DNA of 64,000 bases from positions 32,001 to 96,000 of the forward strand of contig JAKFBU010000077.1 of assembly GCA_036676985.1 (NCBI GenBank), in the 5' to 3' direction. Position 1 is the stretch's first letter; every line of letters starts with the position of its first letter. The translations under genes were made by a program, and so were the position numbers. The notes under the pieces are model-generated. The model was not told where the DNA came from, did not search any database, and worked only from the letters and a program-made list of their open reading frames with translations. This document shows positions 16,910 through 64,000 of the stretch, in pieces. The stretch comes from Candidatus Sericytochromatia bacterium. Its GTDB lineage: Bacteria > Cyanobacteriota > Sericytochromatia > S15B-MN24 > UBA4093.

Positions 16910-17425
16910 CTAGCGGCTCAGGATGCCCGTGGCGGTGGCCACCCACGCGGGATGTCGGGTTTCGAGCTGCTGCCACAAGGCGAGCACGTCCTCGGAAACG
17001 GCGCGCCGATCGGCGGCGGGCAGGTTCAGGACCCCTTCCGCCTTCTCTTGCTGGCTTCCCTGCTTGTGCAGGGCCTGGCGCAGGGTGGGGTGCTCGGTGA
17101 GCAGCTCGCGGTACCAGCCGTTGACGTCCTCGGCGATCGCCCGCCGCTCCTTGGCCGGCAGCGCCTGATACGCCTTGCCCAAGGAGTTGAGCTTGGTGGC
17201 CGTGACGGGGACCCAGGCCTCGGTCTTGGCCGCGACCTCGGGATACCGCTCGTGAAGCTTGGCCGCGAGCGCCGTCTGGTCCTCGGGGGCGAGCTGGTGG
17301 TGCCGCATGGCCGCCGTGACGGCTTGATCCTTGGCGAAGGCCAGCGTGGCCGGCCCATAGGTGGCAAGGCCCCAGGCGCCGCCGGCGGCAAGCGCGATCG
17401 CCAGGATCGCGGTACGTAAACGCAT
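16910..17425 (-). CDS. Hypothetical exported helical protein
   Basis: N-terminal hydrophobic signal/anchor; internal repeat LPAKERRAIAEDV / LPAADRRAVSEDV. Confidence 0.7.
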   Translation of the reverse strand: MRLRTAILAIALAAGGAWGLATYGPATLAFAKDQAVTAAMRHHQLAPEDQTALAAKLHERYPEVAAKTEAWVPVTATKLNSLGKAYQALPAKERRAIAEDVNGWYRELLTEHPTLRQALHKQGSQQEKAEGVLNLPAADRRAVSEDVLALWQQLETRHPAWVATATGILSR

Positions 17426-17458
17426 GATTGCGCTCCTCTCTAGGCGAAAGGGCAGAGT

Positions 17459-18361
17459 CTACCGTGGTTCCGGGCTGGTCACAACAAGGGAGTGACCGTC
17501 CGCCACGGCGGCTGCGGCCGGCTGCACCTGCGTGCGCCACACGAGGTAGAACGCGCACAGGATGATGAGCCCCGCACCCGCCGCCCCCATCCAGGTGAGG
17601 CCTTCGCCGAGCATGAGCCACGCGGCCACTGCCGCCACCGGCGACTCGAGCAGGAAGACGACGCCCGCCACGTGCGGCGGATAGGAGCGCTGCACCCAGG
17701 GCTGGAGCACGAAGGCCAACAGCGTGCTGATGAGCGTCAGGTAGAGGAGACCGGCAATCGGCAGGAAGCCGAGGCTGCTGATGCTCGGCGGGCCCTCCAT
17801 GAGCCAGGCGAACGGCAGGCCGATCACCCCGACGGCCATCACCTGGGCCAGGCCGAAGGAGAGCAGGTCGGGCACGGTGCGGGTGCAGCGGTCGAGCCAG
17901 AGGATGTGGAGGGCGCTTGCGATCGCGCAGCCGAGCGTGAGCAGGTCGCCCACGTTGAGACCTGCCAGGTCGAGGTTGCACATGAGCCCCACGCCGACCA
18001 GGGCCAGCGTGAGGACGAGCCACTCGGCGGCCCGCACCCGGTGCCGCAGGAACAGGGCGCCGATGGTCGGGATGAACATGGCGTAGGTCGCCGTGATGAA
18101 GGCGCTCTTGGCCACGGTCGTATACCCGAGACCCATGGTCTGCAGCGCGAGACACGTGAAGAGCAGCGCCCCCCCGATGAAGGCTTCCTTCCACGCGCCA
18201 AAGCGGCGCCACGGGAAGAACGGAGCCGCCAGGAGGCCCGCGAGCAGGAAGCGCAGCTCGGTGAGCCAGACGGGTTCCAGCCCCAAGAGCGCCCAACGCA
18301 TGGCGATGAAGGCAATGCCCCATACGGTGGGGATCATGAACAGGGTCAATAACCGGAGCAC
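17459..18361 (-). CDS. DMT/EamA family transporter
   Basis: About 10 TM, WGIAF, GLGYTTVAKSAFIT, GDLLTL, LESPVAA. Confidence 0.9.
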   Translation of the reverse strand: MLRLLTLFMIPTVWGIAFIAMRWALLGLEPVWLTELRFLLAGLLAAPFFPWRRFGAWKEAFIGGALLFTCLALQTMGLGYTTVAKSAFITATYAMFIPTIGALFLRHRVRAAEWLVLTLALVGVGLMCNLDLAGLNVGDLLTLGCAIASALHILWLDRCTRTVPDLLSFGLAQVMAVGVIGLPFAWLMEGPPSISSLGFLPIAGLLYLTLISTLLAFVLQPWVQRSYPPHVAGVVFLLESPVAAVAAWLMLGEGLTWMGAAGAGLIILCAFYLVWRTQVQPAAAAVADGHSLVVTSPEPR

Positions 18362-18516
18362 GGGTGCCTCCTAGCCATGGGCCTGTGCGCCAGCTTGCAA
18401 CGGCCTTGTTTACTAGCTTAGCAGCTGCTCGAGAGGATTGCATCCCCGGCGGCAACCGGAAAGGTTCGACCCTCGGCGAGCGATAAGAAGACTACCCCCG
18501 GTACCTCGGAGCCACC

Positions 18517-19353
18517 ATGCCCAGAACGCTCGTCGCCGCCCTCCTGCTCGTCCTGCTCGCCGGCTGCAGCCATCCGCTGCCGAACGGCCTGGCGGGCGAT
18601 CGCGCCACGGGGGCCACCGCGCACGATCGGGCCCTCGCTCCGAGCTACCGGTTCATCCTCGGCAAGCGTCGCCCCGAGCTCGCCCAGACCGCCTTTCTGG
18701 CGGCCATGGCGGCGCGCTGGCTGCCGGCCGTTACCGCCATGCAGGCCCCCGATGGCCTCACCGGCTACGTGTCGGCCGTGCCGCCCGCCGCCGAGACCGG
18801 CCTGCCGGACGAGGTGGCGCTTGCGGTCTACGCGTCCGAGGCCGCTTATCTGCGCACCTGGGACACGGCAGCCGGACGGGACGCCACCACGCTCGCAGCG
18901 ACCCTCTTCGACCCCACGAATACCCGTACGACGCGGGTCGTGCCGCTTCCGGGAGGCTTGGTCGCGGGGGACGCCTGCGATGCCCTCGGGGCCCCGGTCG
19001 ACTGGCAGCAGGGCTTCACGACCTTCTTCATCGGCCGGCGGCACGACGACCTCTCCTCGGCCGACTTCCTGCGGAGCCTGCATGCCCAGGTGGACCGCGA
19101 GCGCGCCGCCTTCGGCCCCCATGGCCTGCGCGGCTACGTCTTCATGGCGACCCGGGATCACAAGCTCTCGTTCATGAACTGGCCCGACATGGCCACCTTC
19201 GGCCGGGCCATGGCCTCACCCGAGGGACAGGAGGTGGCCGCCGACTCCAGGCGCCTCATGCGCACGGTGCAGTTCGCGGGTGCCACGGGCTTCCGCGGGA
19301 CGGTCGAGGCCGGCAAGGCGGTCCGGCTGGAAGGAGCGGGGCTGGACCCGTAG
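18517..19353 (+). CDS. Hypothetical lipoprotein
   Basis: Lipobox LLAGC; typical codon usage; no family recognised. Confidence 0.7.
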   Translation: MPRTLVAALLLVLLAGCSHPLPNGLAGDRATGATAHDRALAPSYRFILGKRRPELAQTAFLAAMAARWLPAVTAMQAPDGLTGYVSAVPPAAETGLPDEVALAVYASEAAYLRTWDTAAGRDATTLAATLFDPTNTRTTRVVPLPGGLVAGDACDALGAPVDWQQGFTTFFIGRRHDDLSSADFLRSLHAQVDRERAAFGPHGLRGYVFMATRDHKLSFMNWPDMATFGRAMASPEGQEVAADSRRLMRTVQFAGATGFRGTVEAGKAVRLEGAGLDP

Positions 19354-31002: not shown

Positions 31003-33042
31003 CTAGTGCGCGGCGAGCTGGCGCTCCGCCTGCTTCTTTGCCATCAGGCGCCGGGCCTTCTCGACGACGTGCTCGGCCGTGAGGTGCAGCTGGATCATCA
31101 GCTCCCACGGGCCGCCGGACTCGCCGAAGCGATCGTCCACGCCCACCATGTCGAAGACCAGCGGCATCTGGTAATCCCGCTCCTCGTTGACGACCGTGGC
31201 GACGAGGCCGCCGAAGCCGCCGCGCTGGTGCTCCTCGCAGGTGAGCAGCACGCCGGTCTCCTTGGCCGCGGCCAAGATCGCCCGGCGGTCGATGGGCTTG
31301 AGCGTGTGGAAGCTCACGACGCGCGTCTCGAGGCCGAACTCCTCCTTGAGGATGTAGGCGGCGCGCATGGCCTCGGGCACCATGGGGCCGCAGGCCAAGA
31401 TCGAGAGGTCCTCGTTCTCCGAGCGGTAGCTCTCGGCGAGCACCGTCTCGAAGGCGTCCACGAACTTGGCCGCCCGGCCGCGGTAGCGGATGACGTTGGC
31501 CTTGCCGAGCACCATCGGGGACTCGGCGCTGGTGACGACGGGCGTGGCCTCGCGGGCAAAGCGGATGTAGGCCGGGCCGTGCAGCCGCATGATGGCCTCG
31601 TCGCAGAGCCGCTCGGTCTCCGGGCCGTCGCAGGGCACGAAGAGGTTCATGTTGGGCAGGATGGCCATCAGGCTGATCTCTTCGAGGGCCTGGTGCGTGG
31701 CGCCGTCGGCGCCCACCGAGATGCCGCCGTGCGCGCCCGCGATCTTCACGTTCAGGTTGTCGTAGCAGATGGTGGTGCGCAGCTGATCCCAGGGCCGACC
31801 CGAGGCGAACACGCCGTAGGTGCCGGTGACGGGGATCTTGCCCTCGAGGGCAAGGCCCGCGGCCATCTGCATCATGTTCTGCTCGGCGATGCCCGCGTTG
31901 AACACGCGCGGCAGGCGCTCGGGATGCCCGTCCTCGAAGTCCGAGATCTTGATGGAGCCCGAGATGTCGGCATGGATGGTGACGAGGCGCGGGTCATCGC
32001 CGTTCTTCTTGAGCGATCGCCCGAACCCGAAGCGCGTGGGCTCCATGGTCACCTGCATGTCCGCTTCCTGGTTCCACCAGTAGTTCTTGCCGAGGCCGGG
32101 CAGCTGCTCGGCCACGCGGACGTCCTGCTTGGCCTGGTAGTCCTCGACGTGCGCGAGCAGGCGCTTGGCGGTCTCGAGGGTGAAGGCCTCCGAGCCGATG
32201 TCCCCGATGGCCTGGGCGAACTCCTCGTCGTTGCGAGGAGCCACGCCGTGCCAGGCGGCCTTGTCCTCCATGTAGGAGACGCCCTTGCCCTTGACCGTTG
32301 CGGCCAGGATGACCGTGGGCTGGCCCTTGGCGGCACGCGCCGAGGCGAAGGCTTCCAGGATCTGCCCCATGTCGTGGCCGTCGATGGCGACGACGTTCCA
32401 GCCGAAGGCGCGGTACTTGTCGGCCAGGGGCTCGACCTTCATCACGTCCTCGACCCAGCCGTCGATCTGCAGGCGGTTGACGTCGATGACGGCGCACAGG
32501 TTGTCGAGGCCGTAGTTGCCGGCCGCCATGACGGCCTCCCAGACGCTGCCTTCCTGCTGCTCGCCGTCGCCCATGAGGCAGTAGACCCGGAAGTCCTTGT
32601 TATCCAGGCGAGCCGAGAGCGCGCTGCCCACGGCGATGCCGAGCCCCTGGCCGAGCGATCCGGACGAGACCTCGACGCCCGGCAGGTGAGGCGCGTGGGG
32701 GTGGCCCTGGAAGCGGCTGTTGATCCGGCGCAGGGTGACGACGTCCTCGTAGGGGAAGTAGCCGGCCTTGGCCATGGCCGCGTACATGGCGGGCGCCTTG
32801 TGGCCGGCCGAGAAGATGATGCGATCGCGCCCGTCCCAGCGGGGCTCCTTCGGATCCAGGCGCGCCTCGTTCAGGTAGAGGGCGGCGGCGATGTCCAGGA
32901 TCGACAGGGTGCCTCCGGGGTGCCCGGAGCGCGCCGCGTAGATGGCCGTCAGGTTGAGGGCCCGCAGCTCGCGCGCCGCCGCCTCGAGGCCCGCGACGTC
33001 GTAGCGTTGTTCGGTGCCGGTTTTCGAATCGACCAAACCCAT
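31003..33042 (-). CDS. Transketolase (N- and C-terminal subunits fused)
   Basis: SGHPGG, SAGH, GSLGQG, GDGEQQEG, GIAEQNM, GADGATHQ. Confidence 0.9.
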   Translation of the reverse strand: MGLVDSKTGTEQRYDVAGLEAAARELRALNLTAIYAARSGHPGGTLSILDIAAALYLNEARLDPKEPRWDGRDRIIFSAGHKAPAMYAAMAKAGYFPYEDVVTLRRINSRFQGHPHAPHLPGVEVSSGSLGQGLGIAVGSALSARLDNKDFRVYCLMGDGEQQEGSVWEAVMAAGNYGLDNLCAVIDVNRLQIDGWVEDVMKVEPLADKYRAFGWNVVAIDGHDMGQILEAFASARAAKGQPTVILAATVKGKGVSYMEDKAAWHGVAPRNDEEFAQAIGDIGSEAFTLETAKRLLAHVEDYQAKQDVRVAEQLPGLGKNYWWNQEADMQVTMEPTRFGFGRSLKKNGDDPRLVTIHADISGSIKISDFEDGHPERLPRVFNAGIAEQNMMQMAAGLALEGKIPVTGTYGVFASGRPWDQLRTTICYDNLNVKIAGAHGGISVGADGATHQALEEISLMAILPNMNLFVPCDGPETERLCDEAIMRLHGPAYIRFAREATPVVTSAESPMVLGKANVIRYRGRAAKFVDAFETVLAESYRSENEDLSILACGPMVPEAMRAAYILKEEFGLETRVVSFHTLKPIDRRAILAAAKETGVLLTCEEHQRGGFGGLVATVVNEERDYQMPLVFDMVGVDDRFGESGGPWELMIQLHLTAEHVVEKARRLMAKKQAERQLAAH

Positions 33043-55983: not shown

Positions 55984-56706
55984 TCACGGCTTGCGCAGGA
56001 CCGCCTCGGCAACCGCGTCCCCGGTAGCGTAGGCATGCTGCTCGACAGGTTGAGCGCGGTACGCTCGGACCCCCTTGGAGGGGGTGGCGTAATCGAAGAA
56101 GTTGTCGTACCAGGTGGTGGCGATGGCCGCATAGGGATCGGCAGGGTCCAGCTTCTTCCTGGACGCTGCATCCCCTTTCTCCCACTGCATGGCATGGGTC
56201 TGCTCGTGAACCACCGTGTTCAGGAACTCGGCCGCGCTGACCATCGACTTCGGACCGATGGTGATGGGCTGGTTGGAACCCGCCGTGAAGCCACCGCGAT
56301 AGGGCCCCTCCTCGAGGCCTAGCGGTCTTGGGCGGAAGCCGTAGATTCCCCCCTGGATAGTAGAAATGCGTTCGCCGAGCTGCATTCGAAGGTCCTGCGG
56401 GAGGCGGGGCCATGAGCGTAGCCCCTTCATCACCGCCTCATCCTGAAGCAGCGTCTGGATCAGGGCCTCACGGCACGCAAGGTCGCGGGTCTGCCAGTCC
56501 TTCGAGGGCGGCACGCTGGGCAGGGGTGGAATCGGACCTGCCAGCTTGGCCTTGAGCTGTTCCAGCTGGCCGACTTGAGTACTCAGGCCAAGGCGATCGC
56601 CAGCTAGGACCGGCCTGGGCTCGGAGGGGGCAGGCGACTTGGTGGTCGCAGCTCGCCTGGGAGCGCTGGTTGAGCCAGCATTGCTTTGCTTGATAGTTGT
56701 GCTCAA
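55984..56706 (-). CDS. Hypothetical HExxH (zincin-like) protein
   Basis: VVHEQTHAMQ and Y..QPVEQHA; low-complexity N-terminus; TTG 56706 after GGGAGGA (ATG 56727 is an alternative start). Confidence 0.65.
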   Translation of the reverse strand: MSTTIKQSNAGSTSAPRRAATTKSPAPSEPRPVLAGDRLGLSTQVGQLEQLKAKLAGPIPPLPSVPPSKDWQTRDLACREALIQTLLQDEAVMKGLRSWPRLPQDLRMQLGERISTIQGGIYGFRPRPLGLEEGPYRGGFTAGSNQPITIGPKSMVSAAEFLNTVVHEQTHAMQWEKGDAASRKKLDPADPYAAIATTWYDNFFDYATPSKGVRAYRAQPVEQHAYATGDAVAEAVLRKP

Positions 56707-56968
56707 GCGATCCTCCCAGGTCAACATGGGCCATGGGGTGCATGGACGGGATGGGGGCGGGTTGGTCCTTAGGACTCCTATACCCCTGCTTGATGCTTAT
56801 GTTACCGGCGTGACAAGGCTTCTCTGACCCGGGCACCCAGAGGGAGTCGGCAGTGCCGCTTTCCTGGGGGCGGTTGACTTCTGACTCGCTATGGCTTAAT
56901 TACTGTCAAATTTCCATTAGCTTTTATTAAGGCAGAGACGTCGAAGCTTCGAATCACAAGGAGATTGA

Positions 56969-57739
56969 ATGCGAACAAACCGCGGAATCATCGCTGCCAT
57001 CATGCTGTTGTCTATCGTTTTTATGGGGCTCGACTGGAGCCGCTTGATACTCCATCCGGCAGATTTGGAAGTCTCTCCCCTCTCCAATGCCATGAAAGTC
57101 TGTGTCTCTTTCCTGGCGACGGTGGTCGCCTGGCGAGCCCGAAACCACGGCTTCTCCAGTGGCGATGAAGCGGCTTTCCGGATCCTTTTTTCCCTCGTGT
57201 TCGTTGCCGACGTTTGCTTCGTAGTGGGCCTGGCCCCCGTGGGCATCGTCTTGTTCGCCATTTTTCAGGGGTTGCTGGCAAAGCGAAACCTGACGGGATG
57301 GCAAGAGGCTAAGGCCGCCCTCACCAGAGACTCGGCCGCGCTGGGCGGTGTGGCGTTGGGCGTCGCAGCTTCTCTCGGGGGAACGCTTTTTGGGATCTAT
57401 CACTTGCAGGGGGTCACGCCCTTGCTGTTTGTGATCGCCGTCTACGTGACCTTCTTGTGGGCCTCCGTCGTGTCGGCCTGGGCATCGCGCGCCATTGGTC
57501 ATTTTCCCCGCCGGAACGCGGGCATGATGGCGCTGGGGATGTCCCTCTTCTTGTTGTGTGACATCACGGTCGCCGGTAACTTGGCCCTGCCGCCGGACAG
57601 CATGATGCGTGTCGTGACGTCGAGTTTGACCTGGATGTTCTATGCACCGGCATTGGTCCTGATTGCGCTTTCCGCCTGGCGAAATCCGGTAAGCTCCGTC
57701 CCTCAGGACATTCGGCAGACGGTCGATTCCGTGAACTAA
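56969..57739 (+). CDS. YhhN/lysoplasmalogenase-like membrane protein
   Basis: Multi-TM, ADVCF, GMSLFLLCDITV, WMFYAPA; AAGGAG RBS. Confidence 0.7.
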   Translation: MRTNRGIIAAIMLLSIVFMGLDWSRLILHPADLEVSPLSNAMKVCVSFLATVVAWRARNHGFSSGDEAAFRILFSLVFVADVCFVVGLAPVGIVLFAIFQGLLAKRNLTGWQEAKAALTRDSAALGGVALGVAASLGGTLFGIYHLQGVTPLLFVIAVYVTFLWASVVSAWASRAIGHFPRRNAGMMALGMSLFLLCDITVAGNLALPPDSMMRVVTSSLTWMFYAPALVLIALSAWRNPVSSVPQDIRQTVDSVN

Positions 57740-57853
57740 GGTTGGACGGACCTGACGTCCGATATCCGGGTCAATAATTGCTTGGGTAGTCATCCGAAAT
57801 AGGCGTTTGTTCGAGTCTTTCCCGGGCCTGCCTATTAACAGGAGAAACAATCA

Positions 57854-57914
57854 GCCCCTCGTCTGCATATGAGGCGAGGGGCCTTTAGCGCGCCTGGCGA
57901 GACGACTATCGAAC
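57854..57914 (-). repeat. att-like junction 1: tRNA-Arg-like 3' fragment plus terminator hairpin
   Basis: Core 57885-57914 TTAGCGCGCCTGGCGAGACGACTATCGAAC; hairpin 57854-57882. Confidence 0.85.
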
Positions 57915-58049
57915 TTTCGTAACCGGGAATGGACCCATTAATCGGCCCGACACCTGAGCCTGGGCCCTTTGGGGGCATGTCATGTTGGTTGTCGCTTTCT
58001 GACACGGACACTTATTGCTAGAGTTTGCCTGAAAGGAGGACTAACGACA

Positions 58050-58328
58050 GTGCTTTCGAAAATCAAGCTTTCGCTCACCAGAATTGCCGTAGCTCTTTCT
58101 CTTATTTTCGCGATGAGTTTGCCAAGCGATGCGGGCAGAGGCTGTTGCTCCTGGCATGGAGGCGTGGCGGGATGCGACGAAACGGTTGGCCGCCTTGTGT
58201 GTAATGATGGGACATACTCTCCGAGCTGCACATGCGTGCGTAGTCTCCCTACGCCTGCGCCAGAACCTACGCTTACGCCAGAGCCAATCCCTATGCCAAC
58301 ATCCGAAGACGAAGTGAGCAATCGGTAG
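58050..58328 (+). CDS. Small secreted Cys-rich protein (RGCCSWHGGV motif)
   Basis: AAAGGAGG RBS, GTG start, signal peptide, GCCSWHGGVAGC..CNDG..SPSCTC, Pro/Thr tail. Confidence 0.75.
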   Translation: MLSKIKLSLTRIAVALSLIFAMSLPSDAGRGCCSWHGGVAGCDETVGRLVCNDGTYSPSCTCVRSLPTPAPEPTLTPEPIPMPTSEDEVSNR

Positions 58329-58414
58329 ACACCGCATTTGCATCAATTAATCGGTTATCCTCTATATCGGTCAAGGATTAGCCTCAAAGGGAATATCTGC
58401 ATGGATGAAAAAGT

Positions 58415-58476
58415 GACCCCCCGCCTGCATTTGAGGCGAGGGGTCGTTAGCGCGCCTGGCGAGACGACTATCGAAC
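58415..58476 (-). repeat. att-like junction 2
   Basis: Identical 30-bp core 58447-58476; hairpin 58415-58445 with a T-tract on the minus strand. Confidence 0.85.
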
Positions 58477-58489
58477 TAACGTCTGCGCG

Positions 58490-58996
58490 TTATTGCGCCT
58501 GAAGCGTTACGTCTGAATTCCACAGATACTGAGCTTTTTGACCTGTTCCGCGCCGCCCGATCGTGCGGATGATCTCATCGCTGGCGAGGCCCAGTGAATG
58601 CAGTATTTCCCTGGCCCGGCTGATGGTGGGGTAAATCGAGGACGGGGACATGCCAGGGATTCCAACTTCGATGTCCTTAAGGGAGAGCGGGGTGCCTGCG
58701 TGTCGATAGAGTAGCCGAATGAGGTCCTCGACGCGGGGCGGGAGTAGGGCCCGCTTGCTTTTGTAACGCAAGGTGCCGGTAGTCAGCAGCAGGTCGCCTT
58801 CGCTTTTGGGAAGGGGAATGGGTGACGCCGTTGCCTCGGTGGCGATACGCTGAGTGTTGGGTCGGTCGTGCCCTGTCATGAGGCTTAGGGCCTGCTTGTA
58901 GGCAGCCACCCAGCCAAGGAATTGTTCCGGGGTCTGGTTCTGCTCCATGGCCTTTAGTAGGAGGTGCTCGATTACCTCTTCCGGTGTTGTGCCCAT
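58490..58996 (-). CDS. Winged-helix (OmpR C-terminal-like) DNA-binding protein
   Basis: LPPRVEDLIRLL..AGTPLSLKDI..SIYPTISRAREIL..IIRTIG; ATG 58996 after GGGAGG. Confidence 0.65.
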   Translation of the reverse strand: MGTTPEEVIEHLLLKAMEQNQTPEQFLGWVAAYKQALSLMTGHDRPNTQRIATEATASPIPLPKSEGDLLLTTGTLRYKSKRALLPPRVEDLIRLLYRHAGTPLSLKDIEVGIPGMSPSSIYPTISRAREILHSLGLASDEIIRTIGRRGTGQKAQYLWNSDVTLQAQ

Positions 58997-59241
58997 TGGC
59001 TTCCTCCCTCTGTTCAGCATCCACCCTGTTGCCACTATACACGACTAGCAAAGACTTAACACGTCTTGCTGGATACTTTTGTTCGCGACTACTGAGGTGG
59101 CAAGCGTTCTCGATATCATCTGTCGTGCTGATTTTCGGAGTTGACCATAGGGCGAATGCATGATGAGGCTTGGCGTAACTACCAAGTTGACCAAGGTTTC
59201 GCATGATCGACGGGCTCAGTCTCCAGTATGGACGCCGACGT

Positions 59242-59271
59242 AATCCAAGGATAATGTGCTATTCTTGGATT
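59242..59271. promoter_or_regulatory. Inverted-repeat operator upstream of the Fic gene
   Basis: AATCCAAGGATA-N6-TATTCTTGGATT (11 of 12 positions symmetric). Confidence 0.55.
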
Positions 59272-59318
59272 CTAAGGGGCGAGGTCCAAGGTATCCAGAC
59301 GAAACGCAGGAGGTGACA

Positions 59319-60557
59319 ATGGGCCGCCTTGTCGAACGTTATTGGGGATCAGACTGGGGTCGCATGGGAGGGCGACGCGCGCGGCGCGGCTTCACGTACT
59401 TTGCGTATGTACCATCGACTGTCAGCGATCTGGAGCTGACGTTGCCCGCGGATCTCGCAGCTGAAATGATGGAGACGGAAGCCCAACTAAGGGAATTACA
59501 GGGCGGCGCCAATCTACTGGGCCTCGAGTCGCTCAGCCGCCAGTTGCTCCGGGCCGAAAGTATCGCCTCGTCACGCATCGAGGGTCTCGAGCTTTCTCAT
59601 CGCCGACTCGTCACGGCGCTCTACGATCCGGATGTCGCGGACGAGACTGCCCGTTTCGTCCTGGGAAACATCGCCGCCATGGAGTCGGCGATCCGACTTG
59701 CCACGGAATCACAGACGTTCGGCCTTACGGAACTCCTGGAGATCCATCGCCAGCTTCTGGAGCGTACGCCACTCCAGCGGATCGCCGGCCAAATCCGACT
59801 TGATCAGAACTGGATCGGGGGAGGGGCGGCAGGCCCACGCAACGCCGAATTCATACCGCCACCTGAGGACGAGGTGGAGGCCTTGCTCGAGGACTTGTGC
59901 GTCTTCATCGAACGAGACGACTTGCCTGCGATTGTCCAAGCGGCGATCGCACATGCCCAGTTCGAGACCATACACCCTTTCGCCGATGGGAATGGGCGCG
60001 TCGGTCGTGCCCTTATTCATGCCATCCTGCGACGGCGAGGGGTTGCCACGACGATCGTTCCACCCATCAGCACCGTACTCGCCACCAACGGAGCGCGATA
60101 CGTGCAAGGTCTCACCAGTTTCCGGGAAGAAAACACGCTCGATTGGTGCACATTCTTCACCCGGGTGGTGGCAAGCGCGGTCCAGCACTCAAACGATCTC
60201 GCCCATCGCCTAACCGCCCTTCAGGCCCGCTGGCATGAACAGGCCCATCATCCTCGTCGCAACTCGACCGCCGAAAAGCTCATTCAATCATTGCCCTCCA
60301 GTCCCGTGTTGGATATCCGCCTCGCGGCCGAGGTGGCTCAGGTGAGTGAAGAAGCGGCTCGTTTGGCTATCAATGCGCTCGCTGAGGCTGATGTCTTGAG
60401 TCCCATTCGGGTCGGGCGACGTAGGGGCCAGGCATGGGAGGCCAAGGAGATCGTGGCCTTACTTGATAACTTCGAATGGGACCTCACGACTCCGACTCAA
60501 CCCGAGCAACCGCGTCGTCGATCGCCTCGTCGTCGAGTCGTCCCGATGGAGAAATGA
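59319..60557 (+). CDS. Fic family protein (class II-like) with C-terminal HTH-like region
   Basis: HPFADGNGRVGR catalytic loop; N-terminal SSRIEG inhibitory motif; AGGAGG RBS. Confidence 0.92.
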   Translation: MGRLVERYWGSDWGRMGGRRARRGFTYFAYVPSTVSDLELTLPADLAAEMMETEAQLRELQGGANLLGLESLSRQLLRAESIASSRIEGLELSHRRLVTALYDPDVADETARFVLGNIAAMESAIRLATESQTFGLTELLEIHRQLLERTPLQRIAGQIRLDQNWIGGGAAGPRNAEFIPPPEDEVEALLEDLCVFIERDDLPAIVQAAIAHAQFETIHPFADGNGRVGRALIHAILRRRGVATTIVPPISTVLATNGARYVQGLTSFREENTLDWCTFFTRVVASAVQHSNDLAHRLTALQARWHEQAHHPRRNSTAEKLIQSLPSSPVLDIRLAAEVAQVSEEAARLAINALAEADVLSPIRVGRRRGQAWEAKEIVALLDNFEWDLTTPTQPEQPRRRSPRRRVVPMEK

Positions 60558-60558
60558 G

Positions 60559-60621
60559 CGGCCCCCCGCCTAAGATGCAGGCGGGGGGCCGTTAGCGCGC
60601 CTGGCGAGACGACTATCGAAC
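60559..60621 (-). repeat. att-like junction 3
   Basis: Identical 30-bp core 60592-60621; hairpin 60559-60591. Confidence 0.85.
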
Positions 60622-60764
60622 CTTGGTAGCCAGGTTAAGTGATTTGCCGATCCGTCCTAACGCCTAAACTGGCCGTGTTTTCCTGGACGACGCTAGCCTT
60701 GGGGGCGGCTTTTAACTCGCCCAAGCCAATGAAGTCGAATCGCAGCATTGGCGAGGGGCAGACG

Positions 60765-62243
60765 CTACACGTTGGAATAGGCTCGCGTGCGCGCCACCCA
60801 GGCCATGACGTCCTCCTTGGGAGGCAAGTCTTGCAAGTCGATCAATGAGAGTTCGTCTTTCGAAATCGATTGGGACGCTACTAGACGATTGGCATGACGC
60901 TCGAGGATCTTCTCGAAAAAGTTTCTGACTTCGCGTGCATTGCCAAAACCAGGTCCTTTGTTCTTGTAGACGTAGTCGAGAATGACTTTCGTCCCCTGAA
61001 CACATCGCGGGGTCAATACATAGCCCGAATCTTCGGCCATTTTGAGGAGGATTGTATGCAGTTCCTCGGATGAGTAATCCGTAAATTCGATGTATTTGTT
61101 GAATCGCGAGCGCAGCCCCGGATTAGATTCGATAAAGTCCACCATTTTCTCGGAATAGCCAGCCACGATGACCACTAGGTCATCCCGCCGGTCCTCCATG
61201 AGCTTCAAAAGGGTGTCGATGGCTTCACGGCCAAAGTCATTGTCACTGCCCTTTGGCGCGAGCGAATAAGCCTCATCGATGAACAAGACGCCGCCGACAG
61301 CGCGTGAGACTACGTCACGCGTCTTGATCGCGGTCTGACCCACGTACCCCGCGACAAGACCGGATCGATCGACTTCGATCAAATGCCCCTTTGAAAGCAA
61401 GCCCAGCGAGCGGTAAACGTGCGCGAGGAGGCGGGCCACCGTCGTCTTGCCCGTGCCGGGATTACCCGAAAAGACGAGGTGCAGAGAAAGCGGAGGAACT
61501 GGTAGCCCCGCCTGCTCACGAAGCTGGCGGACGCGTAAGAGGTTCGTCAGGGTCAAAACGTCTTGCTTGACCGGACCCAAGCCCACCAATCGACTCAGCT
61601 GCTCCTGCAACTCCTCCCAACTCCTGGCAGGCTCCTGCTCGACCTGACTATCCTCTTGGAATTCGTCGTCCTCCTCATCGTCGAATGCTACCCGTATTCC
61701 GGTGCCGTCATCGGAAACGATCTCGATCTCGGCATCGCCATCCTCGACGTACACGCCGTTCATGCGGCAGATGACCTGAAAGCTAGAGATTGTTTGGTTG
61801 AGGAGATCGAGCTCGCTTTCCGTGATTTTTCCGTCAATCGCGATGAGAGTCTTGCCAAGAACCTCGAACAATCCGATTATGGCGTTCGCCATGGTGTTGT
61901 CCAGGTCCTTATCGCTTTCAATGGCTGCTTTTAGCAGCTGCGGAAAGCGAATGTGGTGATCGATTTCATCGGACAGAAAGGACTCGATGTAGCGGATCAT
62001 ATCTGCCTTGGAAAAGTCCAGATCCAACATCGTGCAGATGAGCTGATGCTCCTCGTCCGACAGATATTCGTCAGCCGATACGAGCAGGGCCGAAAAATAG
62101 AATAGGTTCTTGACGGTGACTTCCGACGGGTCCATATTCCGGACGATAAGGCGACTCCAGTAGCCTGCTTCCTTGAGGTTCTGAGCGCACTCGATGAGCT
62201 TTGTGGCGATGTGTTTGGCTTCTGCAACCTTCTGGGCGTTCAT
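60765..62243 (-). CDS. CbbX/SpoVK-type AAA+ ATPase with TerB-like N-terminal region
   Basis: LVGLGPVK, HLVFSGNPGTGKTTVAR, LVAGYVGQTA, FIDEAY, NPGLRSRF, GNAREVRN; N-terminal ADEYLSDEE and IDGKITESE. Confidence 0.85.
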   Translation of the reverse strand: MNAQKVAEAKHIATKLIECAQNLKEAGYWSRLIVRNMDPSEVTVKNLFYFSALLVSADEYLSDEEHQLICTMLDLDFSKADMIRYIESFLSDEIDHHIRFPQLLKAAIESDKDLDNTMANAIIGLFEVLGKTLIAIDGKITESELDLLNQTISSFQVICRMNGVYVEDGDAEIEIVSDDGTGIRVAFDDEEDDEFQEDSQVEQEPARSWEELQEQLSRLVGLGPVKQDVLTLTNLLRVRQLREQAGLPVPPLSLHLVFSGNPGTGKTTVARLLAHVYRSLGLLSKGHLIEVDRSGLVAGYVGQTAIKTRDVVSRAVGGVLFIDEAYSLAPKGSDNDFGREAIDTLLKLMEDRRDDLVVIVAGYSEKMVDFIESNPGLRSRFNKYIEFTDYSSEELHTILLKMAEDSGYVLTPRCVQGTKVILDYVYKNKGPGFGNAREVRNFFEKILERHANRLVASQSISKDELSLIDLQDLPPKEDVMAWVARTRAYSNV

Positions 62244-62259
62244 CTTGAAAAATTCCTGC

Positions 62260-63213
62260 TTATACTAGGCCATATTCGCGGAACAATTTCATCAGTTCAT
62301 TCCCATCGAGAAGTATTACTTGATTCTGTTGGGCATACTCGATGGCATCCGGTGATGTCTCGCCATTTGTGATGTAGACAATCTTGTCAAAGTTTCGGTT
62401 CCCCTTGGCAGAGAAAGGCATCATAAGCTGAAAGCGGGTGATGTACTCGTCTTCCCGAAAGTAGATGAGCCACTCTTGGCCCGACTCGAAGTGGCCGATC
62501 AGTTGCACGGCCTCATCCACATAACCAAGTTTCTCGAGCCGGCAGCGGAGTTTTCGAAATAGTTGAAAAACGAGCAGCTCCAAGCCTGATGTAGTTTCAG
62601 GCAAGGCCATGTCTTCACCAAAGGCGTCCACGTTCTCCAAATTGCCTGCCGTGCCTGCAATGAGTGCGTTGTTGTTTCTGGGCTTGGTTGGAGCCACGGG
62701 TGCCGCGTCGCTGCCGGAGGCAGCTTCTCGCTTTGGCGCCTTTTGCGGCTTGTGAGCATTGGATGGCGTTGGCTCTTGCCCCGTGCTCTCGGGTGGCGGA
62801 GCCACATAGTGTCCCAACGTAAGGAGGATCGTTCCGATTACGCAGGTGCTGAACCAGGCTGCTTGCCAGTCTGAGAAGCGGAATAACAGTTGTATCGGCA
62901 GAAAGAGGATCGCCGATACAACGAAGGCTCCAACAGCGACTTCCAGCGTAGTGAAGGGCTTGGAATCGACCGATGGTGCTTCCACTGCCTGGTTGGTCGA
63001 AGCCTTGAACGAGCGACCCGTCTTGGATTTCTGGCCATGGTTCACGGTGTAGGAAACGCCCGTTCCTGGCAACGAAACGGTAGTGCGGCTCCCATTCTTG
63101 CCTACGGTGTGCTTAAAGCCTTTTCCACCGAATGTCGTAGAAATCCCGCTCTTGCTGAAGTTAAGCGTGACGCCGGGCATCAGTTTTAGCCGACGTGAGA
63201 ATCTAAATCCCAT
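62260..63213 (-). CDS. DUF4236 membrane protein with degenerate Mrr-like C-terminal domain
   Basis: MGFRFSRRLKLMPGVTLNFSKSGIS..PGTGVSY; two TM; C-terminal ITNGETSPDAIEYA..ILLDGNELMKL. Confidence 0.78.
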   Translation of the reverse strand: MGFRFSRRLKLMPGVTLNFSKSGISTTFGGKGFKHTVGKNGSRTTVSLPGTGVSYTVNHGQKSKTGRSFKASTNQAVEAPSVDSKPFTTLEVAVGAFVVSAILFLPIQLLFRFSDWQAAWFSTCVIGTILLTLGHYVAPPPESTGQEPTPSNAHKPQKAPKREAASGSDAAPVAPTKPRNNNALIAGTAGNLENVDAFGEDMALPETTSGLELLVFQLFRKLRCRLEKLGYVDEAVQLIGHFESGQEWLIYFREDEYITRFQLMMPFSAKGNRNFDKIVYITNGETSPDAIEYAQQNQVILLDGNELMKLFREYGLV

Positions 63214-64000
63214 GGAACCTCGTGATGCAGATAGAAGATCTCGTCATTTGATCGGTATACCCGATCATTGGTTAATCGAAAGTAGAACAAATTTTCAAGC
63301 AGGACGGCAAGATAGGGGCAGCTTTCCTGCCTTTCACTGAAGTGGCCTCTTGGTTGGTTGAGAACTGCTGACCGATATGGCCGGGTGACCTCCCCCGGAA
63401 CCTTGGCTGTAGGGGATAACAGTCCTTGCTTGGGCTACGGTAAAGTGAGAGTGTCGCTCCGCGGTTGAGGTCCTTCCGAGGCGGTAAAACGGCCCAGCGG
63501 CTCTGTCGCTGGACCAAGGCGCGCTTGGAGAGGAAACGTTCGACCATTGGTCATCGGGTCATTGCGCTGGCGGGGAGATTAAGTCCTGACTAGGCCTCTG
63601 TTTCGGGGACCATGGCCGTAGGGCAGATTCGTCCTTGAGCGAGGTCTACCGAACCGCTGTCGGGAGTTCTACTTCACTGCCTGTTCGGCGTGCGTCGCGT
63701 CGAGTGAGGCGGTTGGTCGGTCAAAGGTCGCGCCTCGGCTGCCTCCTGTTGGGGGCAATCGTCCATAAACGACGCGACGGCAGCGCTTCTGGGCCACCCT
63801 TGCGCTTGGAAAAGAGTGCTTGCCTGGGCATAATGGAAGGGCCCCACGCCCGGAGGAGGATGCCATTTCAAGTCTGGTCCCTACCGTTGCAGGATACGTT
63901 CCCGACCTCTTGCTGACGTGGCCCGGATGGCATGCGGTCCCCGAGGCACGGATCGAGCGGTTACCGGGTGTCGTCCTCTTGGGGGACATCAGCGGCTTTA

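Follow-up and report, generated by a model that had tools for sequence, protein, structure and literature searches.

Tandem islets without recombinase genes stand behind tRNA-Arg(CCG) in a Candidatus Sericytochromatia genome

How a row of small gene units, one of only 562 bp and none with a recombinase gene of its own, came to stand behind a tRNA gene is the question raised by one end of a 64,000-nucleotide stretch of DNA from Candidatus Sericytochromatia bacterium. This stretch (the window) corresponds to positions 32001–96000 of contig C77, which is 112.6 kb long in an assembly of 79 contigs and 4.68 Mb. Near its right-hand end, three identical 30-bp repeats (30-mers) divide a region of lowered GC content into units, which an earlier note made from the letters of the window had taken for integron-like gene cassettes stacked at tRNA fragments. 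At a rough probability of 0.55, we read the locus as a tandem array of non-autonomous islets accreted serially and site-specifically behind tRNA-Arg(CCG) by a recombinase acting in trans. Evidence for this reading, and for the alternatives to it, was sought in the window, the rest of the genome, related genomes, and public sequencing runs.

Results

Co-oriented modules divide a low-GC region

The three 30-mers that the earlier note had described as identical, equally oriented, and each next to a related GC hairpin were all recovered exactly, at 57885–57914, 58447–58476, and 60592–60621, and no set of three matches was obtained in any of 100 shuffles. Their spacings of 562 and 2145 bp are the unit lengths proposed at the outset, and the drop in GC content was likewise borne out (0.563 across 57854–64000 versus 0.666 across 1–56000). 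A repeat search of the window extended the repeat family to 76 nt at 82% identity, the family being longer than the 30-mer because a GC hairpin precedes every copy on the plus strand. Across six aligned copies of the 30-mer and hairpin together (the module), a 12-pair consensus hairpin is kept, with compensatory changes at 4 of the 12 pairs. Upon scanning for terminator-like structures on the minus strand, two of the three hairpins in the window passed and hairpin 1 failed. As anticipated in the earlier note, a further copy was present to the right: a fourth 30-mer, with two mismatches and in the same orientation, lies at C77:100078–100107, between the window end and the tRNA gene. The repeat features of the window are as follows.

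57809–57832, plus strand: inverted T-arm-like motif (GTTCGAGTCT...), just outside hairpin 1; resembles the tRNA-Arg(CCT) 3′ end
57854–57882, minus strand: hairpin 1, distal end of the array (repeat family, alignment)
57885–57914, minus strand: 30-mer copy 1, sense strand GTTCGATAGTCGTCTCGCCAGGCGCGCTAA (exact match)
58415–58445, minus strand: hairpin 2, terminator-like on the minus strand (alignment, terminator scan)
58447–58476, minus strand: 30-mer copy 2 (exact match)
60560–60590, minus strand: hairpin 3, terminator-like, with the loop inverted relative to hairpin 2 (alignment, terminator scan)
60592–60621, minus strand: 30-mer copy 3 (exact match)
60622–60700, minus strand: additional arm, some 70 nt long, on the 5′ side (sense) of copy 3; also beside copy 4 and the copy on contig C28

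The module shares a short core with tRNA-Arg(CCG) and carries a broken T-loop arm

An intact tRNA-Arg gene, predicted by the earlier note on the minus strand, was found at C77:102870–102943 (70870–70943 in window coordinates), 6.9 kb past the window end. It is the single tRNA-Arg(CCG) of the genome (ARAGORN, whole genome) and scores 71.2 bits in Rfam. On the sense strand, the joint between units reads GTTCGA-TAGTC-GTCTCGC-CAGGCGCG-CTAA and the tRNA reads GTTCGA-GTCTTGT-CAGGCGCG-CTAA. Both have the acceptor 3′ strand, the discriminator, the trailer, and a homologous hairpin followed by TTTCTCC, such that the stretch common to the 30-mer and the tRNA 3′ end amounts to 12 nt (CAGGCGCGCTAA) plus trailer and hairpin. 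The joint departs from the tRNA by five added bases (TAGTC) after GTTCGA, the T-loop part, and by two further changes, the T-stem strand being CTTGT in the tRNA and CTCGC in the joint. The original parse of the 30-mer as a tRNA 3′ end holds for CAGGCGC-G-CTAA as acceptor strand, discriminator, and trailer, and fails at the T-stem and the inserted TAGTC. Because of the five extra bases and the different T-stem strand, the 30-mer is no fragment moved away from this genome's tRNA-Arg(CCG); judged by its letters, the joint is probably an element-borne sequence or a damaged mimic of a tRNA 3′ end, and the view of the repeats as tRNA fragments left behind by integration is given up here.

The five-base insertion is present in all six arm-bearing copies of the genome, as TAGTC, TAGTT, or AAGTC. 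Among copies 1–3, 0/90 pairwise differences were counted in the 30-mer versus 45/138 in the adjoining 46 nt, a clear contrast even though the pairs are not independent. We read the module as a putative composite of an element-borne arm (GTTCGA-TAGTC-GTCTCGC), a 12-nt core in common with the tRNA, and a terminator supplied by the unit. Some 70 further nt of arm are found on the 5′ side at copies 3 and 4 and at the C28 copy; that of copy 3 aligns over 99 nt at 78% identity to copy 4 and over 82 nt at 73% to C28. No convincing conserved RNA structure was found in this arm, and a small RNA gene, considered as a candidate there, was dropped for want of such a fold. Rfam has no family for module or arm, returning only tRNAs and sub-threshold noise.

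The units lack recombinase genes and carry largely defence-type cargo

Four units follow the tRNA gene and its hairpin, named A to D outward and measuring 2.7 kb, 7.5 kb, 2145 bp, and 562 bp; joint 4 separates A from B, joint 3 B from C, and joint 2 C from D, and joint 1 closes unit D against DNA of core composition. Direct modules bound units B, C, and D on both sides; unit A has the tRNA end on one side and joint 4 on the other. Recombinase genes had been reported missing from the units in the window, and this held throughout: no recombinase was detected with Pfam in seven units at three loci, and tblastn of six recombinases of the genome against all units gave a best E of 0.047 and no remnant. 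PF00589, PF00239, and PF07508 had no match on C77, C30, or C28. Genome-wide, PF00589 matched five times, none on C77: two Xer-sized genes (C61 and C4), genes of 441 aa beside tRNA-SeC on C62 and of 432 aa on C41, and a fragment on C76 beside tRNA-Met. Serine recombinases were present at two loci, on C41 and C61, and none on C77. The integrase gene that the earlier note had expected near the tRNA did not materialize, as none was found adjoining tRNA-Arg(CCG).

Unit A encodes a 385-aa HSDR_N nuclease-like protein and open reading frames (ORFs) of 99 and 203 aa. Unit B holds a 1370-aa cyclase-STAND-TPR protein, a DUF4236-Mrr_cat protein, and an AAA ATPase; unit C a SoFic-type Fic protein and a 181-aa ORF; and unit D one 92-aa gene. 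Those within the window are placed as follows.

58050–58328, plus strand: sole gene of unit D, 92-aa Cys-rich protein; no Pfam match
58490–59035, minus strand: 181-aa ORF, divergent from Fic; no family match, start codon uncertain
59319–60557, plus strand: Fic-family protein, SoFic type; likely ATG behind GGAGG, open frame from 59256
60765–62243, minus strand: AAA+ ATPase of CbbX/SpoVK/EccA type, 492 aa (family match)
62260–63213, minus strand: DUF4236 protein with C-terminal Mrr_cat nuclease-fold domain, 317 aa (family match)
63820–64000, plus strand: start of the 1370-aa nucleotide cyclase/STAND ATPase/TPR gene, which continues to C77:99932

Gene orientation is mixed across the units, with one to three genes in each. 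The gene content first proposed stands for the 92-aa ORF, Fic, AAA ATPase, and DUF4236 protein, and is unconfirmed for the winged helix-turn-helix label of the 181-aa ORF, which has no Pfam match; by comparison, this ORF is also unrelated to the PRiA4 protein of the C30 islet and to the ORF beside the module of genome G012 (both below). The Fic protein matches Pfam Fic at 5.9e-21 in addition to Fic_N, and PADLOC SoFic at 2.2e-74 over residues 7–359 of 361. The 1370-aa protein has PycC-type cyclase matches. The 92-aa protein gave weak PRK10040-type matches (E 5e-6, under the cut-off), and its hydrophobic N-terminal stretch resembles, by our reading, a signal peptide. Judging from these family assignments, the cargo would be largely of defence type (SoFic-type Fic, nuclease-fold proteins, AAA ATPase, and cyclase-STAND protein).

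Module copies elsewhere in the genome mark borders of foreign DNA

Allowing up to three mismatches, the 30-mer occurs five times genome-wide, namely the three window copies, C77:100078–100107, and C30:2225–2254 (two mismatches). A combination of blastn and an nhmmer profile yielded eight module-like places: the four joints, the tRNA trailer, C30:2225–2254, a diverged copy at C28:8189–8217, and C28:17188–17269, the last being a degenerate tRNA-like end and hairpin without the insertion. Seven of the eight adjoin a tRNA-Arg gene or lie where low-GC DNA meets core DNA, a distribution unlike the genome-wide scatter that the earlier note had named as a sign of a repetitive extragenic palindromic (REP) sequence.

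Contig C30 begins with tRNA-Arg(CCT), and the end of C68 overlaps it by 123 nt, stopping one base past the tRNA. The 2.1 kb from the terminator of this tRNA to the C30 joint are a low-GC islet encoding a Fic protein, 57% identical to the window Fic, and a PRiA4_ORF3 protein; GC content passes from ∼0.58–0.63 in the islet to 0.66–0.72 after the joint. On C28, 8 kb of low-GC DNA terminate at the diverged copy. In all, foreign and core DNA meet at the module in three loci, of which two are tRNA-Arg genes.

In single-stranded form, the site behind tRNA-Arg(CCT) folds so that an outer stem of 19 bp encloses the terminator hairpin (DNA fold z −7.9). Upon folding of all eight sites, a strong outer stem was obtained at one and a weak one at one more. 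On C30 (L007 98–200), an inverted copy of the tRNA-Arg(CCT) T-arm and acceptor end lies downstream of the terminator of that tRNA, and this inverted motif is conserved in the sister species G001 (L054, contig C393 of that genome, ∼215–340). G001 and the source genome diverge directly after it, and the motif therefore marks the edge of a variable region. In the C28 stretch 17188–18580, a DDE_Tnp_1 transposase gene (17210–18580) comes immediately after a degenerate 3′ end of tRNA-Arg type that has a hairpin and a T-run. A tRNA gene lies within ∼125 nt of the start or end of ten of the 79 contigs (C6, C9, C10, C26, C30, C39, C56, C64, C67, and C68), which fits branching of the assembly graph at variable DNA beside tRNAs.

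Irregular copies accompany some joints

Several features around the joints depart from the regular layout. The hairpin of joint 3 (60559–60588) is the reverse complement of the hairpin of joint 2 (58417–58446), loop included, at 87%; the hairpin has been flipped in place between two otherwise co-oriented modules. Beyond hairpin 4, at C77:99985–100040, a second, degenerate and partial 30-mer (GCGATAGTTCTCGCC...) occurs in the same orientation and may be the scar of an emptied unit. Left of joint 1, GC content is already ∼0.59 across window 56500–57850, and the 256-aa membrane protein gene located there (56969–57739) has no homologue in nine genomes of the family. An exact 10-mer of the inverted motif at 57809 occurs only five times on both strands of the 4.68-Mb genome, and three of the five occurrences fall in the two tRNA-Arg genes, one counted twice through overlapping contigs. 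A looser motif scan, with 1181 genome-wide matches, was uninformative beyond pointing to this 10-mer. Together with the 57809 motif, the low GC of 56500–57850 and the membrane protein gene without family homologues suggest that one more accessory unit lies beyond the marked array.

The array is absent from family genomes, and one module copy recurs in another family

In the nine family genomes (completeness 81–100%), the 30-mer was found in none at up to three mismatches, so that the comparison of relatives called for by the earlier note returned the array as absent. A tRNA-Arg(CCG) match was present in six of the nine, and in the five relatives whose downstream DNA was examined (1.5–20 kb), a terminator of the tRNA's own comes next and the tRNA 3′ end is not repeated. 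In G002 and G003, the orthologue of C30:9798–10256, a gene 7.5 kb past the C30 joint, comes directly after tRNA-Arg(CCG), and the synteny around the left-flank helicase differs in every relative examined. A reconstruction of the ancestral flank was attempted, from which no inversion between the two tRNA-Arg loci is claimed.

Among 26 other genomes of the same order, a module match was obtained in one (G012, of another family). It reads GTTCGA-TAGCC-GTCCCTCC-CGGGGCG-CTA, followed by a terminator, contains the five-nucleotide insertion, and stands next to a Fic/Doc gene where low-GC DNA gives way to core DNA. Over the domain, the Fic of G012 reaches only 28% identity, with no cassette shown to be common to the two genomes, and a pattern search for a cognate tRNA in G012 gave chance matches only. 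Exact-pattern scans for the joint found none in metagenome or viral contigs and, among genome contigs, only that of G012; blastn of arm plus module had no match in phages or plasmids.

The gene beside this only module copy outside the source genome (G012 contig C145, L061 2524–3410) is a short Fic/Doc-type gene of 238 aa. By our reading, a small ORF upstream of it, in the usual antitoxin position, is a putative antitoxin gene. Fic-domain genes occur in three module-bounded islets. Elsewhere in G012 (contig C179, 7400–12800), an array of 27 tRNA genes lies within ∼5.4 kb (Rfam tRNA matches).

A population contig skips exactly one unit

Of 18 public runs listed, 17 contain some of the stretch and six at least half of its words. 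The runs come from eight studies of soil, groundwater, and rhizosphere, and the contigs of four (X4, X5, X6, and X7) were aligned to the array; the runs exist as contigs only, so circular junctions could not be seen. X5 comes from the source's study, though from another sample, and one of its contigs (2340 nt, 10 differing letters, depth 4.96) covers L056 1575–1884 and 2447–4476 and joins window position 57884 to 58447, skipping exactly 562 bp, the length of unit D. At this joint, 31 nt fit both sides. The mean depth of X5 in two bins (2.11 and 2.74) is what the 2340-nt contig alone supplies. No such joint at the module was found in X4, X6, or X7, and X7 has no cover over units C and D and the left flank. 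The X5 contig, in which exactly this unit is missing, supports the interpretation of the earlier note, subject to the mis-join or homologous deletion considered below.

Contigs of the groundwater runs X4 and X6 contain a joint running backwards, from window 61730 in the AAA ATPase gene to 58720 in the 181-aa ORF, with eight letters between. These contigs may derive from either another organism or a rearranged variant. Further joints with short matching sides also occurred in the aligned runs, and neither these nor the backward joint are used as support.

Discussion

Our preferred reading of the array is serial insertion in trans. Each unit would enter as a small circle whose attachment site (attP) consists of the arm, the core, and the unit's own hairpin, and a recombinase not encoded in the units would join this circle to the tRNA end or to an existing joint. 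We infer a crossover at or 3′ of the 12-nt acceptor-stem core, corresponding to the T-stem/acceptor junction class of crossovers in the Islander survey discussed below. The tRNA body would stay intact with each insertion, each unit would supply the next terminator, and the arm would stay at the distal end of its unit as older units were pushed outward.

Several observations weigh against this scheme. The placement of the crossover is an inference, and the T-loop part of the module would not make a working tRNA. No recombinase could be assigned to the array, the ∼435-aa integrases on C62 and C41 having shown no connection with the module. A simple model of this kind also leaves unexplained the additional partial or inverted copies at some joints. 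The joint that skips unit D is present in only one of the four runs aligned. Its 31-nt repeat has what we take to be the k-mer length of the run contigs, such that a mis-join in X5 is possible, and a deletion, if real, could have occurred by homologous recombination. Circular junctions of the units were not seen in these contig-only runs.

A doubtful though possible alternative is that the units are decayed remnants of once larger, integrase-bearing islands at tRNA-Arg, with strain differences arising by homologous recombination or slippage between joints of 31–76 bp. Decay is the usual origin proposed for cis-mobilizable elements (CIMEs; PMC5704250), the X5 joint falls inside a 31-nt exact repeat that homologous recombination could use, and around joints 1 and 4 there are incomplete and inverted copies of the module that resemble scars. 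However, the seven units at three loci contain no recombinase remnant and are compact, each with its own hairpin, and an invariant 30-mer beside hairpins that have diverged by a third is unexpected of passive scars. Trans insertion of non-autonomous units is favored over decay because no recombinase remnant was found and because the arm is invariant while its neighbors diverge. An exchange anchored by homology, in which the module is a conserved intergenic copy of the tRNA-Arg trailer and genes are swapped or added between modules with no site-specific enzyme, appears improbable. The modules do have 76–100 nt of homology in common, and hairpins 2 and 3 resemble ordinary terminators, but identity outside the 30-mer is only ∼67–80%, a level at which homologous recombination works poorly. 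A specific attachment site would produce the pattern seen, with the module at the foreign/core borders of three loci (two being tRNA-Arg genes) and again in another family with the five-nucleotide insertion.

It is very improbable that the locus is a true integron-like platform, with palindromes around the hairpins (GTTCGA...TCGAAC) folding single-stranded like attC for a dedicated enzyme. The 19-bp outer stem at tRNA-Arg(CCT) (z −7.9), conserved in the sister species, and the start of homology between modules exactly at GTTCGA are consistent with such folding. Yet a strong outer stem exists at one of eight sites and a weak one at one more, the inverted outer motif is missing from most joints, no intI-like gene is present on the contig, genes stand in both orientations, and GTTRRRY/RYYYAAC boxes are absent by inspection. 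We give almost no credence to a REP-like extragenic element unlinked to gene mobility. Although the module is intergenic and pairs a GC hairpin with a conserved flank, REP sequences and bacterial interspersed mosaic elements number tens to hundreds of dispersed copies, whereas the module occupies eight places in 4.68 Mb, seven of them at tRNA-Arg or low-GC/core junctions, and is found in none of the nine family genomes.

Tandem islets without recombinases, delimited by repeats of a tRNA gene (tDNA) end, are already in print (PMC3146451, PMC5704250), and the novelty claimed in the earlier note is reduced accordingly. The closest described case is that of the ssrA islands of Dehalococcoides, which lie in tandem downstream of one tDNA, bounded by a 20-bp direct repeat of its 3′ end (McMurdie et al. 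2011, PMC3146451). In that account, a conserved motif just upstream of the repeat cannot be aligned with the tDNA, insertion is inferred in the T-loop region, and 16 islands with a serine-recombinase module are distinguished from 15 without an integration module, the latter being discussed as possible cis-mobilizable elements. The array described here resembles those islands in its tandem units behind one tDNA, its tDNA-end repeats, and its non-tDNA motif upstream. As far as the islands are described there, they are large and some carry a recombinase; here, no unit does, units go down to 562 bp, and the target is a tRNA-Arg gene. In further contrast, each unit here has its own terminator hairpin, and the upstream motif mimics a T-arm with a five-nucleotide insertion.

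CIMEs are described as keeping attL and attR, lacking integration and transfer genes, and lining up one after another at a target gene's 3′ end (Pavlovic 2004 and Bellanger 2011, as reported in PMC5704250); that source defines them as decayed integrative and conjugative or mobilizable elements (ICEs/IMEs), which move in cis with an adjacent ICE. Candidate attachment sites flank the units here, the identity of the modules as such sites resting on sequence, and family scans detected no integration or transfer genes, no search having been aimed at conjugation genes. Compared with CIMEs so defined, the array has no adjoining ICE or IME in this assembly and no visible decay remnants of recombinase genes.

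The Islander survey, as described by Hudson et al. 2015 (PMC4383910), recognizes islands by an intact tDNA at one end and a same-orientation 3′ fragment at the other, includes "damaged" fragments, and counts the T-stem/acceptor junction among its crossover classes. tRNA-Arg(CCG) provides the intact tDNA, and the fragments are in the correct orientation, with a match limited to the 12 nt, trailer, and hairpin. Islander also demands an integrase in each island and at least 2 kb: the first filter rejects every unit here, and the second also rejects the 562-bp unit D, the other units being long enough. In Prochlorococcus tycheposons, partial tRNAs are reported between and within islands, along with scattered degenerate remnants, adaptive or defence-related cargo, and cultures heterogeneous for excision (10.1101/2020.12.28.424599); unlike the units here, tycheposons as reported carry integrases and often replication genes. 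The dif modules of Acinetobacter plasmids are portrayed as small gene modules without a recombinase of their own, with short specific sites served by an enzyme encoded elsewhere (PMC13141974, PMC6449649). Those are 28-bp XerC/XerD sites on plasmids in the accounts cited, in contrast to a chromosomal array at a tRNA gene; the 11-6-11 inverted-arm Xer layout is absent from the 30-mer by inspection only, with no model search.

The array resembles integrons in lining up small units and in having a structured site wherever two of them meet. Unlike integrons, the array has no intI, attI, or Pc (no tyrosine recombinase is encoded on the 112.6-kb contig) and no attC boxes, and in place of co-oriented one-gene cassettes it has units of mixed orientation with up to three genes. 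Its hairpins are simple GC stems, with outer inverted motifs at some joints only. The integron-like label first attached to the locus is not retained, there being neither intI, attC-type boxes, nor a common promoter. Among tRNA-linked islands, a kind already known, the array is a compact and orderly case; it is not an integron. What differs here is the lack of a recombinase in any unit, the 562-bp one-gene unit, the private terminators, and the broken T-loop arm.

If the units are only scars, the locus would be an ordinary tRNA-linked island with unusually clean joints. If instead it is true that they move as recombinase-less minicircles, capture at a tRNA gene would need no island-borne integrase and would work at the scale of a single gene; island finders that require an integrase and at least 2 kb would miss such arrays. 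A bolder and rather doubtful version of serial insertion in trans is a dedicated cassette system, in which a broken T-loop attachment module, served possibly by a host enzyme, stacks circles down to one 92-codon gene behind tRNA-Arg genes and lets non-photosynthetic relatives of cyanobacteria capture defence genes much as an integron would. Since its predicted cargo is of defence type, the array may therefore serve as a compact model of piecewise defence-island assembly in an uncultured lineage of soil and groundwater.

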